This document shows positions 9,745 through 52,475 of a stretch of 64,000 nucleotides of DNA, in pieces. The notes under the pieces were generated by a model that was given only the letters and a program-made list of their open reading frames with translations, had not been told where the DNA came from and searched no databases. The position numbers were made by a program, and so were the translations under genes. Origin of the DNA: Candidatus Doudnabacteria bacterium (GTDB taxonomy: Bacteria > Patescibacteriota > Doudnabacteria > UBA920); NCBI GenBank assembly GCA_963768175.1, contig CAVYGQ010000001.1:574305-638304 (forward strand), read 5' to 3'. Every line of letters starts with the position of its first letter. Position 1 is the first letter of the stretch.

Positions 9745-9788
9745 AAAAACAAAAATCACATTATTTAACGGCCGTTAAATAATGTGAT
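9745..9788 (-). terminator. rho-independent terminator of metK
   Basis: Perfect palindrome CACATTATTTAACGGCCGTTAAATAATGTG followed by a U-run on the minus strand. Confidence 0.6.
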
Positions 9789-9798
9789 TTTAAGCTGT

Positions 9799-11071: not shown

Positions 11072-11335
11072 AAAAAACCGCCTATCGGCGGGTTGTAAAA
11101 TTATCTTCCCCGCTCGGGGCTAGAAGTAGCACCTTTCGTATGGGGGTCCCCAAAAATTAGGAGCGCAATTTCCGTAATGCTTTACGGAAATGAGCACGGA
11201 TTTTTGGGGAGAGGAGCAACTGCGGAGAGCTAAGTTTCCGATTTTTATCGGAACGAAAGCTCGAAGCAAGTTGCGACGAGGTTGCTGGCAGGTCATTGGG
11301 CTAGATCCCTCACTGCACTCTTGATAAATTATTTT
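11072..11335 (-). promoter_or_regulatory. SAM-I (S-box) riboswitch with a greatly enlarged P3 region and an intrinsic terminator, in the metK leader
   Basis: Minus-strand RNA contains TTATCAAGAGTGCAGTGAGGGATCTAGCCCAATGACCTGCCAGCAACC and GAAAGGTGCTACTTCTAG core motifs, a P4 hairpin CCCCGAGCGGGG, then the terminator CCGCCGATAGGCGGTTTTTT. Confidence 0.7.
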
Positions 11336-14968: not shown

Positions 14969-15010
14969 CGGCGTCATCCTGAGTCCGCCTCCGGCGGACG
15001 AAGGATCTCT
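14969..15010. repeat. copy of the dispersed GTCATCCTGAG...GAAGGATC hairpin repeat family
   Basis: GGCGTCATCCTGAGTCCGCCTCCGGCGGACGAAGGATCTC. Relatives at 15092-15163, 28031-28068, 31909-32007, 52334-52475. Confidence 0.6.
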
Positions 15011-15091
15011 ACTTTTAAACTTCTGATTAATTAATGTTAAAGTGGGGTAATTATAACCAAAATCGCGGTTTTCGTCAATTCCTGTTCTTTT

Positions 15092-15163
15092 GTCATTGCG
15101 AGGAGTCAGACGACGAAGCAATCTGACGCCAATGGCGTCATCCCGAGTGCATCCGAGGGATCT
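15092..15163. repeat. composite repeat: GTCATTGCGAGGAG...CGAAGCAATC hairpin plus GGCGTCATCCCGAGTGCATCCGAGGGATC unit
   Basis: The first half matches one arm of the large palindrome at 32776-32870. The second half matches the 28031-28068 and 52334-52475 units. Confidence 0.6.
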
Positions 15164-15361
15164 TTTAATTAGATTGCCGCGTCCCGACAAGCCGGGACTC
15201 GCAATAACAGCGCTGACTCTCGTCAATCAGCCAACAAAAAATCCCTTCCAACCCTTGAAGGGGGTGGCAAGGTCGTGGCGATGGCGCGCACGACCTTGCC
15301 TGAGATGAATCTGACGAAGCCGCGACGACGGCGCGTGCGAACTCTACCCGGGATGCAATTT

Positions 15362-17674: not shown

Positions 17675-17995
17675 GTCCCCTCCTTTCTCTCGGGGAATCA
17701 AAACCCTAAAATCAAGATACTGATTCCCCGAGAGGCAATTGTGTTGTATATTTTACTTCTGTTTTTATCTTTTTTCAACCCCATTAGAAACTTTATAAAA
17801 GTTCGGTTTTATTTTATTCATTATTTTTATCGGCAAAGCATTTGTTTTCAGTAAACCAAAGTTTAGGAAGTTTCTAACGGGGTCAACCACCATTTTCCTC
17901 CTACAAAAAAATGGGGGAATAAAACTGGTCATTAAAATAAGATAACTCATTTAACGACCAAATTTCTTCCCCCATTATTTGTTCAAAACTTCGGT

Positions 17996-18032
17996 CACAT
18001 TAAATAACGGCCGTTATTTAATGTGATTTTTA
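17996..18032 (+). terminator. orphan plus-strand intrinsic terminator
   Basis: Perfect palindrome CACATTAAATAACGGCCGTTATTTAATGTG followed by ATTTTT. No plus-strand CDS lies upstream. Confidence 0.4.
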
Positions 18033-21232: not shown

Positions 21233-21356
21233 AGATTACCTCTATATCTATCGTCATGTTGTAGCGTGCCCATTTATGGGCCTCTTAGATAGGTTGCCGA
21301 TAAATCGGCGCGCTACATAACGCGCGATAAAAATTAATTATTTTCGATTGTTTAGA

Positions 21357-21569: not shown

Positions 21570-22484
21570 CTATCCCACAAAAAACTTAGCCAAAAGTTCC
21601 CGCTGTTTGCTTTGCGGATGGAACGAAAGTTCGTCTTCCAAAACCAAAATAAACTCTTCCCGGCGGATTTTGGGCAGCTGCCAGGAACGCAAGACCTTTT
21701 CCAACCAACGGCCAAATCCCCCGCTTAAGCTTTGTTCCAACGCCCGCTGCAGTCGGGAGGAATTTTTTATTTCCGACGGCATGGGTTCAAAATTAGGAAA
21801 AAACGTTTGTACCCACGCACGGTTTATTTGCTGGAATTCGGCGACGGTGCGGCCGTAAACCAAGGGCCGCAGTTTGGCGTACTCCCAAGCCGTATACAAA
21901 TTCCGCAGCTCCGTTACGGTTTTTACCCCGGCCAAATAATGATTTAAGCAAAACCGGCCGGCAATTTTTTTGCCGTGGCGGCGCAGGCCTAAAATTTGGA
22001 AATAAGCCGTAGCCGCGGTGCGCCCGAGCCATAAAAATTTCGGTTCTATTATAATTAACAAATCAATATCGGAATCGGGTTTTTGGACTCCCTGTGCCTG
22101 GCTGCCGGCCAGCGCCACTCCGCGCATAAAAGGCAAATATCTTAGGCCGCCGATAAATTTCCTGATGCGTCTTTCCCGCCCGATGCCATAAATGTAATTT
22201 GCCAGACGTTGTTCTATAATGCCGCTTCGCCCTTTTAAGCAATAAAAGCCGCTTTTTTGCTCCGTTTCATTTTGGCATTCTTCGTCAAAACACCTTAAGA
22301 CCTCATCAATACTAATTTTTTGATTATCATCCGCCGATTCACTAATTAATTCCCAACTGGTATTAATTTGACTTTTTAAAAATTGGGCATCGGCCAATAA
22401 AAATTTGTGCAATTCCAAAAGCGTTACAGGATAGTCCTGCAAATCAAAAAATTTTAAGGTAGATAAAATTCTCTGTTTTAGCAT
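21570..22484 (-). CDS. nucleotidyltransferase-fold protein
   Basis: GSQAQGVQKPDSDIDLLII is a pol-beta-type NTase motif; 304 aa. Confidence 0.5.
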   Translation of the reverse strand: MLKQRILSTLKFFDLQDYPVTLLELHKFLLADAQFLKSQINTSWELISESADDNQKISIDEVLRCFDEECQNETEQKSGFYCLKGRSGIIEQRLANYIYGIGRERRIRKFIGGLRYLPFMRGVALAGSQAQGVQKPDSDIDLLIIIEPKFLWLGRTAATAYFQILGLRRHGKKIAGRFCLNHYLAGVKTVTELRNLYTAWEYAKLRPLVYGRTVAEFQQINRAWVQTFFPNFEPMPSEIKNSSRLQRALEQSLSGGFGRWLEKVLRSWQLPKIRREEFILVLEDELSFHPQSKQRELLAKFFVG

Positions 22485-22521
22485 ATGTTGAGATAAAATG
22501 CTATCGCATTTTATGCTTACA

Positions 22522-22866
22522 CTATAGACCCAACTTGTCTAAAGTAATTTCTTCCCAATCGTCAAACCCTTCTGCTCTATATACCCGAAGCTTATGGAAA
22601 AATTCTGTTTCGGAAAATTTATACTGCGTTTGGGCGGATTGCCCGGCGCGGTGGCTGTACATTTCCTTTTTTTCCAAAACCACGGGGCGGTTTTCCCGGA
22701 CCAGCTTAAATTTCCCGGAAGGATTTTCAAAAATTAAGATATCCTGAGTGCCCTGCTTTATGGGTCCGTCCTGGGTGTCCATAATTAGATCTTCGTGGGT
22801 TAGCTTCACGTTTTTAAAATTTTTTTGCGCTATTTCCACTAATTGTTGCCATTTTTCTTCTATCAT
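22522..22866 (-). CDS. hypothetical protein
   Basis: 114-aa ORF. Confidence 0.35.
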   Translation of the reverse strand: MIEEKWQQLVEIAQKNFKNVKLTHEDLIMDTQDGPIKQGTQDILIFENPSGKFKLVRENRPVVLEKKEMYSHRAGQSAQTQYKFSETEFFHKLRVYRAEGFDDWEEITLDKLGL

Positions 22867-24897: not shown

Positions 24898-24978
24898 TAT
24901 AATTCCTTTCTAAGATTATTGTAGCATATTGTAGCTTGCCCATTTATGGGCTTCTTAAAAAGCCGATAAATCGGCACA

Positions 24979-25911
24979 CTACACTTGGCACTTGGGACAA
25001 AAACTCCCTGTCCTTCCGCCTATTTTAGTTGCCTCGATGATACTGCCACATTTTTTGCACTTCTGCCCTTTGCGGCCGTAAACAAAATGGAACTTCCCCA
25101 TTTGCCCCCAGCTGCCGTCAGTGCGCACAAAGTCGCCGACACTGGATCCTTTGGCTTTTATAGCTTTAATAAGCACAAGCTTTATCCATTTATATATGGC
25201 TAATAATTCTTTGCCGCTCAACGATGAAACCTTACGCGTTGGCCTGACGCCGGCGTGGAATAAAATTTCATCGGAGTAAATATTGCCGATGCCCGCCACA
25301 AAATGGCTGTCCATAAGCAGTTGCTTAATGGAAATTTTTCTCTTGTTGACTTTTCGCGCGGCCGCGCGAAAAGTCAACAAGGTATATTTTTTATCCAACG
25401 GCTCGGGACCGTATTCCTGCAATTCTCTGACTCGATCAAGCTCGCTCTCGCGCACTAACTTTAAGTAGCCGAATTTCCGAATGTCGTTGAAATAAAGATG
25501 GCTACCGTCTGTAAATGTAAAAACCACGTGCGTATGTTTGGAAGGCAAAAGTTCCAGCGGCGCCGTCAGCTTATTTAGTAATCGAAACTTTCCGCCAGTT
25601 CTTTTCCGTAAAGCTTTGTCCTCAAAAATAAACTGCCCGGTCATTTTAAGGTGGGCCAGCATAAAAAACGGACCCGAAAGATTGAATATCAACAACTTCG
25701 CCCGACGCTTAACCGATATAATTTTTTTTCCTTTTAGTAAACTTATAAACTTATCAGCCGACCGCTTATCGGCTTTCCTGATATTACTGGCGACTCCCGG
25801 GCCGACGGCAACCATTTTTGGCGCGTTAACCACAACCGATTTTATTGTCCGGTTTTTTAATTTGCGGTTAAGCTCGCCGGCGATAGTTTGGACTTCGGGA
25901 AGTTCAGGCAT
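24979..25911 (-). CDS. fpg: formamidopyrimidine-DNA glycosylase
   Basis: MPELPEVQTIAGEL N-terminus, H2TH region, C-terminal CKKCG...CPKCQ zinc finger. Confidence 0.85.
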   Translation of the reverse strand: MPELPEVQTIAGELNRKLKNRTIKSVVVNAPKMVAVGPGVASNIRKADKRSADKFISLLKGKKIISVKRRAKLLIFNLSGPFFMLAHLKMTGQFIFEDKALRKRTGGKFRLLNKLTAPLELLPSKHTHVVFTFTDGSHLYFNDIRKFGYLKLVRESELDRVRELQEYGPEPLDKKYTLLTFRAAARKVNKRKISIKQLLMDSHFVAGIGNIYSDEILFHAGVRPTRKVSSLSGKELLAIYKWIKLVLIKAIKAKGSSVGDFVRTDGSWGQMGKFHFVYGRKGQKCKKCGSIIEATKIGGRTGSFCPKCQV

Positions 25912-27869: not shown

Positions 27870-28124
27870 TTTCTGTCAATATATTCCTGCTCTCCGGGTT
27901 CCATAAATTTTCCTTTCTAAATTTACTTTTTTATCGCCTTTATACTATATTACTCTCTCTATGCTTGTCAAAAATTAAAAAAACTCCCCATTTGGGAAGT
28001 TTCTGTTAAGGTCATTATTGCTCAGTTAAGAGATCCTTCGCTCGGATGCACTCGCTCAGGATGACGCCGAGGTATGGAGTTTACAGCGTGTAATCCGCGT
28101 AAATATCCGCGTGTAATCCGCGGT

Positions 28125-30962: not shown

Positions 30963-31000
30963 TTGTTGATTTTTTGCGCGGCCGCGCAAAAAATCAACAA
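30963..31000. repeat. 38-bp perfect palindrome TTGTTGATTTTTTGCGCGGCCGCGCAAAAAATCAACAA
   Basis: Immediately upstream of the comEC start. A near-identical palindrome lies inside fpg at 25343-25380. Confidence 0.7.
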
Positions 31001-31224: not shown

Positions 31225-31688
31225 CGTAATTTGTCCTTATATTTTTCTAAAAAGAACGGCAATTGGGAATGTTTCAACTCCGGCAAATTATCTAACTTAA
31301 ACCAGCCAATTTCGTCAAACTTATGCGGCTCGCCGTTTTTGGCCTGCCTTGGGTCAACCAAGACTTTAAAATCTAGGCTCACCCAATGGGTCGGCCGACC
31401 TAGGTGGCTACGGTGCACGTCACGGAACCCCAAAAACTCAAAACTTAAGACATCCGCGCAATATTCTTCCTTGATTTCCTTGCGCAAAGTATTTTCCGCC
31501 GTGTCGCCAAACTCCAAACCGCCGGCGCCGCAATCCCAGGCTCCGTGTTCATCCCGGGCTTGTTTGCCTCTCTTTTGCATTAAAAAATTTCCTTTGCCGT
31601 CGTGGCAAAAATAAACTACGGAAACGCCGATGAAATCTACGCCTTTACGTAGTGGCTGCAAGGGCGCGCTGTTTGTTTGATTTTGCAT
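31221..31688 (-). CDS. NUDIX hydrolase
   Basis: Nudix box GGLEFGDTAENTLRKEIKEE. Start probably the internal Met. Confidence 0.7.
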   Translation of the reverse strand: MQNQTNSAPLQPLRKGVDFIGVSVVYFCHDGKGNFLMQKRGKQARDEHGAWDCGAGGLEFGDTAENTLRKEIKEEYCADVLSFEFLGFRDVHRSHLGRPTHWVSLDFKVLVDPRQAKNGEPHKFDEIGWFKLDNLPELKHSQLPFFLEKYKDKLR

Positions 31689-32268
31689 ATAAGACAAATT
31701 GATATGCGCCAAAAAGCGCAACCGTATATCCTAAATCCCCAAACAAGGTGCCGCGGAAAAACGGCAGGCCGTTAACGTACGCCGCCATAATCCCGATTAA
31801 ATTATGGCTATATGAGCCGTAAAAAAAGGCAAAGTTGGTAACCAAAAAGAATATGGCCGATGAAAGCAAGGACGAGCCGATGATTTTTGCCCACTTCACA
31901 ACGGCGTCATCCTGAGCCCATCCAAAGAAAATTCCCAGCGGGCGAAGGAACTCTTTCTTAGATTGAGATTCTTCAGCCTCAGATGCATTCGGCTTCAGAA
32001 TGACGCCATTGGTAGCAGACTTTTTAATCCACAGCCCAAACAACACACCAACCAAATGCGAAGCGTAAACCGCAACCATTAGCGGCCAGGCAAAAAACCC
32101 CAAAAATATATCGCTAATAAATCTCACGGCTAAAGTCAGGCCGACTGATTTTTTCCAGCCCAAATTCGCCGCGCTAAAAATCGCCAAAGCCGTTATGGGG
32201 GCGGCGTTGGGCATATGGGGGATAAATCTGGCGGCTATTGCCGCTATAATCAAAAAGTAGATAATCAT
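31645..32268 (-). CDS. polytopic membrane protein carrying an in-frame inverted-repeat-bounded insert
   Basis: 207 aa, 5-6 TM helices. The segment 31909-32007 is bounded by GGCGTCATCCTGAGCCC / GGCTTCAGAATGACGCC inverted repeats. Confidence 0.45.
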   Translation of the reverse strand: MIIYFLIIAAIAARFIPHMPNAAPITALAIFSAANLGWKKSVGLTLAVRFISDIFLGFFAWPLMVAVYASHLVGVLFGLWIKKSATNGVILKPNASEAEESQSKKEFLRPLGIFFGWAQDDAVVKWAKIIGSSLLSSAIFFLVTNFAFFYGSYSHNLIGIMAAYVNGLPFFRGTLFGDLGYTVALFGAYQFVLYAKSNKQRALAATT

Positions 32269-32270
32269 CT

Positions 32271-32726
32271 TTATTCTCCTGAAGCGCTAATTAAATTTAA
32301 TTTCCATTCAATTTTATCGCCAGCTTTTAAAATATATGACGACGCGCCCACATTGCTGGATTTGCCGCTTACGAAAAATTCCCAGTAATGTTTGCTGTCA
32401 GGTTTTACACCGTCAATTGATAAAACCATTTCGCCGATGCCGGAATAACTTTTGGTTTCAACTTTATGGTCATTTTTCAAAAGCTGGATGGCCGTTTCGC
32501 CTGTAACAATAACATCGCTGGGCTTGTTTAAATTAGAACCGTCTACTGTTTGGGTTACGGTCAAGCTTTGGGTTTGCGGAGTGGCTGGCGGATTGATAAT
32601 CGTCGACTGGGTAGTTTGCTGCAAAGCGGCCGGCTGATTATTTACTTGCGGCTGGGTCTGGTTGCATGCCGCTGCTAACAAAAAAAACGCCGCTGGCAAT
32701 AAAATAGTTTTTACTGATTTTTTCAT
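32271..32726 (-). CDS. DUF4430-like lipoprotein (transcobalamin-like fold)
   Basis: Lipobox LAAAC. C-terminal SYSGIGEMVLSIDGVKPDSKHYWEFFVSGK...GDKIEWKL. Confidence 0.5.
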   Translation of the reverse strand: MKKSVKTILLPAAFFLLAAACNQTQPQVNNQPAALQQTTQSTIINPPATPQTQSLTVTQTVDGSNLNKPSDVIVTGETAIQLLKNDHKVETKSYSGIGEMVLSIDGVKPDSKHYWEFFVSGKSSNVGASSYILKAGDKIEWKLNLISASGE

Positions 32727-32775
32727 ACCTTCTGATTTTACCGAGTTAATTGTTAATCGTCAATCGTTTGTTTCT

Positions 32776-32870
32776 GTCATTGCGAGCGGAGCGAAGCAAT
32801 CTTTACTTTACTTTACTTTGTTTGATAGATTGCTTCGTCGTCCCGATAAGTCAGGTCTCCTCGCAATGAC
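32776..32870. repeat. ~95-bp palindromic element GTCATTGCGAG...CGAAGCAATC...GATTGCTTCG...CTCGCAATGAC
   Basis: Perfect 11-bp outer and 10-bp inner inverted repeats with a central TTTACTx3 repeat. Relative of the 15092-15123 hairpin. Confidence 0.7.
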
Positions 32871-32871
32871 A

Positions 32872-33504
32872 TCAATAGTCTATCCCCTTTTGGGCAAGTA
32901 TGCCCTTATAATACGGATGCTGAATCATTTTCATTTCGGTTACCAAATCGCAGAGTTTTAAGATTTTCGGGAACTTGTTGTGGCCGGTCAAAACCAGATG
33001 CATTAATTTCGGCTTGATGTTTATTAAATCTATAATATCCCGCTCTTCTATTAGTCCGACTTCCAAGGCGAAAATAATTTCATCAAGGATAACTAGATCA
33101 TAATCGCCCGAAGCAATAATCTCCCGCGCCCGTTCTATTCCTTTTAGCGCCTGGCGGATATGGCTGTCTTTTTCTTTTTTGTCGCCCAAAATGCCCACAA
33201 AGCCAAGGCCGACTTGTTCGTTTTCTATATTACCGATAGACGACGGATAGCTGATGCTATCAAAAAAATTTATTTCCGAAGATACCGGCCATTCGCCTTC
33301 TTTAACCCTGTCATCCGACCGATTGGCAGCTTTAACGAATTGCAAAATAAAAACATTTTTTCCGTCCCCCGCCGCCCGCACCGCCATACCCATTGCCGCC
33401 GTAGTCTTGCCTTTGCCCGCGCCTATGTAGCAAATCACCAGCCCCTTAGGCTCGTCGGAGAATGAAGTGGGTATTTTTAATTTTTGCTTTTTACCTTTAC
33501 CCAT
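32872..33504 (-). CDS. cobO: cob(I)yrinic acid a,c-diamide / cob(I)alamin adenosyltransferase
   Basis: P-loop GAGKGKTTAA; YDLVILDEI; LVLTGH. Confidence 0.8.
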   Translation of the reverse strand: MGKGKKQKLKIPTSFSDEPKGLVICYIGAGKGKTTAAMGMAVRAAGDGKNVFILQFVKAANRSDDRVKEGEWPVSSEINFFDSISYPSSIGNIENEQVGLGFVGILGDKKEKDSHIRQALKGIERAREIIASGDYDLVILDEIIFALEVGLIEERDIIDLINIKPKLMHLVLTGHNKFPKILKLCDLVTEMKMIQHPYYKGILAQKGIDY

Positions 33505-48507: not shown

Positions 48508-48693
48508 TCAGCGCACCTTGGCCGTGACCAACTTTCGCTGGACGGCGAAGACCAGCACCAGGCCGATGAGGTTGAGGACGACGCCGATGAAAAACCACCC
48601 CACCGGGTCCCGTCCTTTGGTTTTCGCAACCCAGGCGGCGACTACGCCGAACAGGATGCAGGTAACCACGTACAATGCGTAAGTACTTGGCAT
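48508..48693 (-). CDS. 61-aa two-TM small membrane protein
   Basis: MPSTYALYVVTCILFGVVAAWVAKTKGRDPVGWFFIGVVLNLIGLVLVFAVQRK. Confidence 0.35.
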   Translation of the reverse strand: MPSTYALYVVTCILFGVVAAWVAKTKGRDPVGWFFIGVVLNLIGLVLVFAVQRKLVTAKVR

Positions 48694-52333: not shown

Positions 52334-52475
52334 TGGCGCCATCCTGAGCCCGAATGCATCTGCCTTTCGACTTTGCTCAAGACACCCTGAGCGTAGCCGA
52401 ATGGGTGAGGGCGAAGGATCTCATCAAAGGTTAAGAGATCCTTCGGTCGGATGCACTCCCTCAGGATGACGCTGA
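52334..52475. repeat. two inverted copies of the GGCGYCATCCTGAGCCCGAATGCATC...GAAGGATCTC repeat
   Basis: GGCGCCATCCTGAGCCCGAATGCATCTGCC...GAGGGCGAAGGATCTC and AGAGATCCTTCGGTCGGATGCACTCCCTCAGGATGACGC. Confidence 0.65.

Follow-up and report, generated by a model that had tools for sequence, protein, structure and literature searches.

Here we describe a 105-bp palindromic element that lies in frame within the gene of a DUF6580 membrane protein of a Doudnabacteria bacterium, which was analysed together with its surroundings in a 64-kb stretch of contig CAVYGQ010000001.1 (referred to as the window). The segment is very probably a dimer of a small non-autonomous palindromic repeat, tagged with CGTC and similar to repetitive extragenic palindromic (REP) sequences, which landed in DNA encoding a loop of the membrane protein and has been tolerated there in frame. 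An initial annotation of this DNA had reported an element with inverted-repeat ends at this place; its dimeric nature, its kinship with CGTC-tagged REPs and with Rickettsia palindromic elements (RPEs), and the recurrence of the loop as an insertion site go beyond those observations.

The element covers positions 31903-32007, that is 105 bp or 35 codons, and corresponds to residues G88-A122 of the 207-aa product. As it is in frame and contains no stop in the frame used, the gene stays open and the element would be translated. In the initial annotation the extent had been given as 31909-32007, of which the end was correct and the true start was found 6 nt further left; similarly, the in-frame addition of residues held, with the count now corrected from about 33 to 35. 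Both bounding motifs are present as reported, since GGCGTCATCCTGAGCCC begins at 31903 and its imperfect inverted complement ends at 32007, and a repeat finder delimited arms of 17 nt at 31899-31915 and 31995-32011 with 88% complementarity. The notion of a single element of about 100 bp was right about the inverted-repeat ends, whereas alignment of units resolved the segment into two complete GGCGTCAT...GAAGGATCTC repeat units that are inverted with respect to each other, carry their tags outermost and are separated by a gap of 11 nt. Unit 1 (31903-31953, plus strand; EFLRPLGIFFGWAQDDA on the mRNA strand) has GGCGTC as its tag, ATCC.../...GGAA as its stem and CTC as its tail, with an apical part that is enlarged, and aligns with intergenic units across the GGCGTCATCCTGAGC head and the GGCGAAGGAxCTC tail. 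The spacer (31954-31964), read from the sequence and the unit alignment, is tttcttagatt. Unit 2 (31965-32007, minus strand) reads GVILKPNASEAEES, with GGCGTCATTCTGAAGCCGAATGCATCTGAGGCTGAAGAATCTC on the minus strand; its DNA is 96% identical to the matching unit of the orthologue at L047 and close to an intergenic dimer at 3426-3513 of L049 (L-numbers denote fetched loci of relatives, P-numbers homologous proteins and WIN the window's own gene). Together with its outer closing stem, as defined by the inverted-repeat arms and the RNA fold, the whole palindrome extends over 31899-32011. Folded as mRNA-sense RNA, the element reached -48.4 kcal/mol (z = -5.0). Its GC content of 0.50 exceeds that of the rest of the gene (0.46) only slightly, the excess being far larger in most other insert-bearing orthologues. 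When compared to the nearest insert-free orthologues (169-170 aa), the 207-aa protein shows a net gain in length of 37-38 residues.

The same repeat occurs elsewhere in the 64-kb window, which is the DNA covered by our repeat census. At no more than 3 mismatches, the 15-mer GGCGTCATCCTGAGC was found 8 times, compared to 0.93 times in shuffled sequences, and none of 100 shuffles reached 8; the match at 48571 is probably a chance one. The intergenic copies that the initial annotation had named at 14969, 15130, 28031 and 52334 are real and were located at 14970, 15134, 28029-28068 (minus strand) and 52335, and an additional intergenic copy was detected at 52434-52473 (minus strand). Motif search and unit alignment identified those at 14970-15009 (plus strand; fold of -11.2 kcal/mol, z = -3.4) and 28029-28068 as single units, while 52335-52473 is an intergenic dimer of the same family and the same layout as the intragenic element, with tags pointing outward and a nested insertion in its left unit. 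A sister family, (T)GTCATTGCGAG...GAAGCAATC, is represented by two further intergenic dimers, one between the DUF4430 and BtuR genes (32773-32873) and one at 15089-15209, in which a GGCGTCATCCCGAG unit (15134-15163) is nested between the halves. Nested units therefore occur at 15089-15209 and 52335-52422, and the window total amounts to 4 dimers and 2 singlets, only one dimer being intragenic. Unit by unit, the inserted DNA can be aligned with the intergenic copies, and as a whole with the intergenic dimers, which bears out the proposed kinship of the insert with the intergenic family.

Six of the seven units of the family in the window begin with (G)GCGTC and one with GGCGCC, and the sister family begins with TGTC. 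The tag is followed by a stem of 5 bp and this by an internal loop, GA/GA(A), beyond which lies an inner hairpin or loop that varies in size (10-60 nt); the unit ends in a 3-nt tail (CTC, CTT or CTG, where the published consensus is CCA). Covariation between subfamilies is seen in the stem variants (ATCCT/AGGAT, ATCCC/GGGAT, ATTCT/AGAAT and ATTGC/GCAAT), and right after the tag come A-T and T-A pairs; in the left intragenic unit the stem is degenerate (ATCC/GGAA). With the exception of the unit at 14970, single units fold no better than shuffles, and the structural argument is therefore based on stem covariation and on the fold of the dimer. An Rfam scan of the whole window at the gathering threshold returned only three tRNAs and an S-adenosylmethionine (SAM) riboswitch, and the repeat was covered by no RNA family.

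The orthologue alignment proposed in the initial annotation was carried out on a set of 120 homologues, mostly from Doudnabacteria and other Patescibacteria, and the nearest relatives were found to lack exactly the insert segment. The protein with the highest core identity to the host protein (P0007 of L049, 80%) possesses an empty 10-residue loop, WIKKSGNHRWAK, and synteny between L049 and the window extends over about 20 kb, FtsZ being 92% and RNR 94% identical. The empty site of L049 reads ATA AAA AAG AGC GGA AAC CAT/CGC TGG and the filled site of the window ATT AAA AAG TCT GCT ACC AAT [GGC GTC ATT ... GAT GAC GCC] GTT GTG AAG TGG. In all more distant homologues the loop has a length of 8-12 residues, which indicates that the empty state is ancestral. 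Also, a very similar dimer (GTCATTCTGAAGCC...GGCTGAAGAATCTC...TTCAGAATGAC) is present in the spacer after ftsZ in L049, where the window has no element, and the sister-family dimer at 32773-32873 is missing from the orthologous 34-bp spacer of L049. Occupancy thus differs at orthologous sites of close relatives, as would be expected for mobile DNA. The window's insert is shared by P0002/L047 and P0003/L050 and in part by P0005, and these proteins carry the same repeat DNA; the initial annotation had considered that orthologues might contain the same residues without homology to the repeat, and these do not.

Codon comparisons revealed that insert and gene have diverged differently. Between WIN and L047, the core contained 68 identical, 53 synonymous and 41 non-synonymous codons (nucleotide identity 0.72), the insert 22, 1 and 12 (nucleotide identity 0.80), and unit 2 (31965-32007) 13, 1 and 1 (nucleotide identity 0.956). 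Similarly, for L047 and L050 the respective numbers were 47, 52 and 63 in the core (nucleotide identity 0.64) and 24, 2 and 9 in the insert (nucleotide identity 0.85). Such codon changes in the insert are not those of a peptide under purifying selection. Judged from these sequences, the insert would either be younger than the divergence of the genes or have its nucleotide sequence kept uniform through re-insertion, gene conversion with other copies as donors, or a structural constraint.

The loop that holds the insert turned out to be a recurrent insertion site. Among the 120 homologues it has exactly 10 residues in 54 cases (consensus WIKxSxNHRWxK) and is enlarged in 61, and inserts of at least 5 residues were found at no other internal site of the protein in any of the 120. 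When only species-representative genomes with a full gene are considered, 19-20 of 45 carry inserts of 17-62 residues at this loop. The inserts belong to at least seven unrelated classes of GC-rich hairpin sequences: GTCAT-type dimers (encoding VIPSASEGSL...KGFFSRMRSFG, VIPEATSA and similar peptides), a ACCACCCC-type (PLLGRRG...SAELSSFSRRSTPRSGG), TSLSLGGTRDISPQEGR, SPxEGR, KREG...KEGAGGVN, AGPRP, which resembles the GTAG-headed REP flanking RayT genes in L049 and L020, and others that were left unclassed. Their GC content ranges from 0.44 to 0.68, compared to 0.32-0.53 for the host genes, and they fold with a median z of -4.0, compared to -0.16 for control segments of the same genes. All 20 inserts are stop-free in the host frame and have lengths that are multiples of 3, whereas, of the two remaining forward frames, one is open in only 6 and the other in only 3 of the 20. 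On a tree of the 160-residue core the insert classes interleave, the root state is empty, and mosaics (P0005) and half-elements (P0106) occur; the resolution of this neighbour-joining tree is poor, and the 35 state changes on it give an upper estimate and not a count. When inserts were compared with their own flanks of 10-20 kb by BLAST and k-mers, methods that are weakly sensitive here, long matches appeared in L007 only (56 nt at 95% and 61 nt at 89% identity). Pooled 13-16-mers of the inserts were enriched in the flanks over core-gene controls (p about 1e-5 to 1e-7), and most single loci gave nothing.

The same phenomenon is seen in other genes. When 1.84 billion representative proteins were searched with a profile of the insert peptide, the same dimer peptide was detected in frame in the Mur_ligase_C domain of MurF (P0121 and P0122), in YchF (P0123) and in the OB domain of RecJ (P0125), the carriers being other metagenomic genomes and not the source genome of the window. 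The search also returned a weak match, P0127 (1124 aa), with about 15 tandem copies of a repeat containing STILRPRPAEQEESL; this is probably an unrelated low-complexity sequence and not a CGTC element. Other in-frame GC-rich hairpin repeats, of the AACCTCTCCC...CCCTCCCC...GGGGAGGG type, occupy fixed positions in genes of relatives, namely after residue 86 of BtuR (7 of 43 genomes; for example L026 8718-8786 and L020 8824-8892) and after residue 79 of Fpg (5 of 27 genomes; L003 9445-9504 and L025 16411-16467). In the fetched loci, RNR, ComEC and another gene hold in-frame hairpin repeats as well, the copies located including L012 163-222 (RNR) and L010 19743-19847. With an occupancy of about 40-45%, the DUF6580 loop is the most often occupied site seen.

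The host gene (31645-32268, minus strand) encodes a protein that matches Pfam PF20221 (DUF6580) with E = 7e-34 and 117.8 bits, where the cut-off is 27, and the match falls into two stretches around the insert, which covers residues 88-122. An AlphaFold model built on the 120 homologues has a mean predicted local distance difference test score (pLDDT) of 85.7 and a fold that is probably like that of BtuM and other S components of energy-coupling factor (ECF) transporters. The insert is bordered by helices 61-86 and 118-148; pLDDT is about 51 over the 10-residue blocks spanning residues 91-120, 74 for residues 81-90, and at least 90 in most flanking and core blocks. In this model, which is confident elsewhere, the insert forms a loop of low confidence that links two transmembrane helices, in agreement with the initial annotation of an insert within a membrane-protein coding sequence. 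The best Foldseek matches were BtuM structures 8c7p and 8ovv (probability 0.99-1.0, TM-score 0.49-0.60, E = 0.1-0.2), followed by FolT, ThiT, BioY and RibU. On the basis of this structural model, the host protein is a probable S-component-like transporter for the uptake of corrinoids (vitamin B12). S components have six helices, and their N and C termini are both intracellular. Since Lys and Arg residues flank the insert loop (WIKKS...KWAK) and given this topology, the loop, which lies between transmembrane helices 4 and 5, is probably cytoplasmic. The host proteins retain all invariant residues of the family. Literature searches for DUF6580 and for the repeat sequence strings returned nothing relevant.

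Upstream in the same operon lie genes for a DUF4430 protein (32271-32726, minus strand; Pfam PF14478, E = 5e-16) and for a corrinoid adenosyltransferase BtuR/CobO (32872-33504, minus strand; Pfam PF02572, E = 1e-52), and the order of the genes is kept in L047 and L049. The next gene after the DUF6580 gene encodes a NUDIX protein. As listed, the NUDIX open reading frame begins with TTG at 31721 and shares 77 nt (31645-31721) with the 3' end of the DUF6580 gene; because the NUDIX gene of L047 overlaps by 8 nt only, the true start is probably further downstream, as judged from this comparison of sequences.

In their architecture the window units come close to a known group of repeats. The CGTC-tagged REP superfamily (Di Nocera, De Gregorio and Rocco, 2013; PMC3733652) is characterized by an unpaired CGTC tag, with TGTC and CCTC variants allowed, a stem of 8-9 uninterrupted base pairs starting with A-T and T-A, a loop of 4-5 nt and the tail consensus CCA. 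Its members are mostly intergenic inverted dimers with occasional intragenic copies, no dedicated transposase is known for them, and the superfamily includes the in-frame elements RPE-4 and RPE-6 of R. conorii and dRS3 of Neisseria (PMC3733652). The window units share with these REPs the tag, the AT-first stem, the arrangement as inverted dimers and the multi-copy, mostly intergenic dispersal, and they have a short 3' tail. However, they differ in having a 5-bp stem, a GA/GA internal loop, an apical region of 10-60 nt and a tail that reads CTC or CTT, and there is no report of the superfamily from the candidate phyla radiation. RPEs, notably RPE-4 and RPE-6 of R. conorii, are said to have been described by Ogata and coworkers in 2000 and 2002. 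Like RPEs, the present elements are short palindromic repeats dispersed in a small genome, have a CGTC terminal tag, form dimers that encode 20-35 residues, and stand in frame in unrelated genes at fold-compatible positions, where they would add an extra translated peptide. Several features by which RPE-type insertions are recognised were found: the insert is in frame and stop-free within an intact open reading frame, missing from orthologues, located in a loop, and several unrelated genes are affected. By description the element is RPE-like. It is unlike RPEs in that the host belongs to another phylum (Patescibacteria, Doudnabacteria-like), in that the unit has a 5-bp AT-first stem, a GA/GA loop and a variable apex, and in that one loop has been struck by many families across orthologues. 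To our knowledge, such a pattern is undescribed for RPEs.

Other small repeats resemble the element in fewer respects. Fusions of RPEs in frame, as well as other in-frame MITEs (miniature transposable elements with inverted repeats), have been reviewed (PMC10969869), and the enterobacterial RU/ERIC elements are small mobile sequences that are non-autonomous, contain open frames and are occasionally intragenic (PMC2759123). In common with the window repeat, these are small non-autonomous repeats with open frames that at times lie inside genes; in contrast to it, they are of the type with terminal inverted repeats and target-site duplications and have a size of 100-170 bp, whereas the window copies have inverted ends without target-site duplication. 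REPINs are REP dimers mobilised by RAYT (Bertels and Rainey, 2011; PMC3116915; PMC3337134). Two inverted units, 51 and 43 nt long and 11 nt apart, that form a hairpin of about 100 nt, singlets that resemble decayed dimers and the presence of RayT-like genes in the clade are reminiscent of REPINs. However, REPIN heads are of the GTAG type, the RAYT gene is flanked by the same REPs and the elements are described as extragenic, while the window head is CGTC, and a cognate RAYT gene flanked by the same type of REP was not found within the window. A literature search for palindromic insertions in Patescibacteria returned nothing on topic. What we report is therefore an RPE-like dimer of CGTC-type REPs inside a gene, from a phylum for which no report was found, and it is the pattern of the recurrent loop that most deserves attention.

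A course of events that would account for these observations starts from a flux of small hairpin repeats that is high in these genomes. A repeat dimer would land in the coding DNA of the protein's only variable loop, which connects transmembrane helices 4 and 5; selection would retain only stop-free insertions of 3n length in permissive loops, and the insert would be translated as a disordered cytoplasmic segment. The insert is presumably tolerated, selectively near-neutral and not needed. Spread may occur through a single-strand, hairpin-recognising enzyme acting in trans, RayT-like or other, and recent transposition, or gene conversion with other copies as donors, might maintain nucleotide homogeneity. 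Patescibacteria abound in RayT-like Y1 transposases (4,736 homologues at E <= 1e-10, with several annotated as RayT), and such genes were found in L049 (17758-18237; Pfam Y1_Tnp, E = 5e-7) and in L020 (18716-19195). At window positions 22484-22522, which are syntenic with the RayT site of L049, the neighbouring genes abut and no transposase is present.

Several observations weigh against the explanation by a tolerated repeat dimer. There is no Y1/RayT transposase gene in the window and no transposase has been linked to the family, and the REPs on either side of the RayT genes of L049 and L020 are inverted GTAG REPs (GGTAGCGGAGGCCACCGGCCTCC in L049) and not CGTC REPs. None of the 6 copies is flanked by a direct target-site duplication, a lack that fits single-strand hairpin mobilisation better than the classical MITE mechanism. 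The family census on which the explanation is founded covers a 64-kb window out of a contig of roughly 949 kb, and translation of the element as some 35 mostly unstructured residues is deduced from the frame statistics. Moreover, additional residues at the flanks (TN...xV[K/R]W) are common to WIN, L047 and L050 and missing at the empty site, and it is the closest relative of WIN that is empty; the history of the insert would be compatible with one gain followed by loss, with independent gains or with recombination. Finally, random insertion and selection alone may fall short of explaining an occupancy of about 45% at a target of about 30 bp.

This last point leads to the question of whether integration is targeted, either because the loop-coding (L4) DNA itself (TGG ATH AAR AAN ... 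AAY CAY CGN TGG NNN AAA ATY) is preferred or because a first palindrome attracts more of them by nesting or replacement. We consider this rather unlikely, but it is compatible with the explanation by tolerated repeat dimers and would add a mechanism to it, recurrence then being due to target choice and not to selection only. In its favour are the occupation of one loop in 19-20 of 45 genomes and 61 of 120 homologues by at least seven unrelated classes, the different inserts in closely related proteins, the mosaic inserts (P0005 compared to P0003) together with the nested units at 15089-15209 and 52335-52422, the single codon phase, (V/A/S/T)-I-(P/L), in which all GTCAT-type inserts start, and a similarity between lineages that is far higher for inserts than for the surrounding gene. 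Yet the GTCAT unit begins at a variable distance, 5 to 8 codons, past the conserved Trp, intergenic copies show neither a conserved target motif nor a duplication, and the stops that most inserts have in other frames suggest that selection alone sets the phase. Furthermore, recurrent sites in BtuR (7/43) and Fpg (5/27) fit a high flux and permissive loops in general. That the L4-coding DNA is a genuine integration hotspot, to which unrelated hairpin families, among them CGTC-tagged REPs without a known transposase, home, or to whose resident palindrome they home, replacing one another fast, is in our opinion unlikely.

High occupancy of the loop might also mean that the insert has been put to use, either as an mRNA hairpin that stabilises the transcript or makes translation pause between helices 4 and 5, or as a linker in the cytoplasm with a modulating effect on the transporter. 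The strong fold of the mRNA (-48.4 kcal/mol, z = -5.0), likewise seen for inserts of other orthologues, and the conservation of synonymous sites within the insert would agree with such a role, but the peptides are unrelated between classes and have lengths of 17-62 residues, an insert is missing altogether from half of the orthologues, among them the closest, differences between inserts are nearly all non-synonymous, as they would not be under purifying selection on the peptide, and partial remnants such as P0106 suggest decay; exaptation is therefore quite improbable. An old, vertically inherited extension of the loop, whose likeness to intergenic repeats would be coincidental or secondary, might be read from the three orthologues that have the same insert with the same flanking residues. 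This is extremely improbable and is contradicted by the present data, as the closest relative and the outgroups are empty, nucleotide identity is higher in the insert than in the gene with almost no synonymous change, and the insert is homologous unit for unit with intergenic copies in the window genome and in L049; also listed against it is the GC content of the insert, which at 0.50 is only slightly above the 0.46 of the rest of the gene, the excess being much larger in most insert-bearing orthologues. Hardly credible, finally, is that the element remains untranslated, through translational bypass, excision from the RNA or inactivation of the gene. The closing stem joins both flanks and is superficially like that of bypass elements, but in skipped or dead DNA there would be no need for 20 of 20 inserts to be 3n in length and stop-free in the host frame, with stops mostly present in the other frames, or for the host proteins to keep all invariant family residues. 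Translational bypass and excision were rejected on these frame and stop statistics.

Other palindromic sequences were noted in the window. Classic GTAG-headed REPs (GTAGCGTGCCCATTTATGGGC and an inverted partner) form two dimers, at 21261-21316 and 24931-24982, and the genome therefore holds palindromic repeats of both the GTAG and the CGTC type. Further families of perfect or near-perfect palindromes, such as CTTGTTGACTTTTCGCGCGGCCGCGCGAAAAGTCAACAAG and AAAATCACATTATTTAACGGCCGTTAAATAATGTGATTTT, are located at 25342-25381, 30963-31000, 9752-9791 and 17995-18026 and look like bidirectional terminators or another repeat family. In the SAM riboswitch (Rfam RF00162, 51.4 bits; 11098-11330, minus strand), a 134-nt insertion takes the place of the 5-nt apical loop of the model and forms two long hairpins (gcaacttgc...gcagttgc and ccccaaaaat...atttttgggg). 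A second copy of this insertion was not found in the window; it may be an RNA counterpart of the insertion into the coding loop.

In-frame palindromic "selfish DNA" is a textbook oddity of Rickettsia. The same phenomenon is now seen in Patescibacteria, which also have small genomes, at high frequency and with many repeat families. For annotation, it explains heterogeneity in length and odd low-complexity segments (VIPSASEGSL, PLLGRRG, SPxEGR) in proteins of the candidate phyla radiation, and it cautions against taking such segments as functional motifs. For the biology of mobile elements, the loop offers many independent events at one site, at which target choice, turnover and nucleotide-level homogenisation of CGTC REPs can be studied. 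If the loop-coding DNA were indeed a hotspot, the locus would be a natural reporter for the mobilisation and target choice of CGTC REPs and of the hairpin repeats of the candidate phyla radiation, and the flux of repeats would be a major source from which these reduced genomes gain new protein loops.

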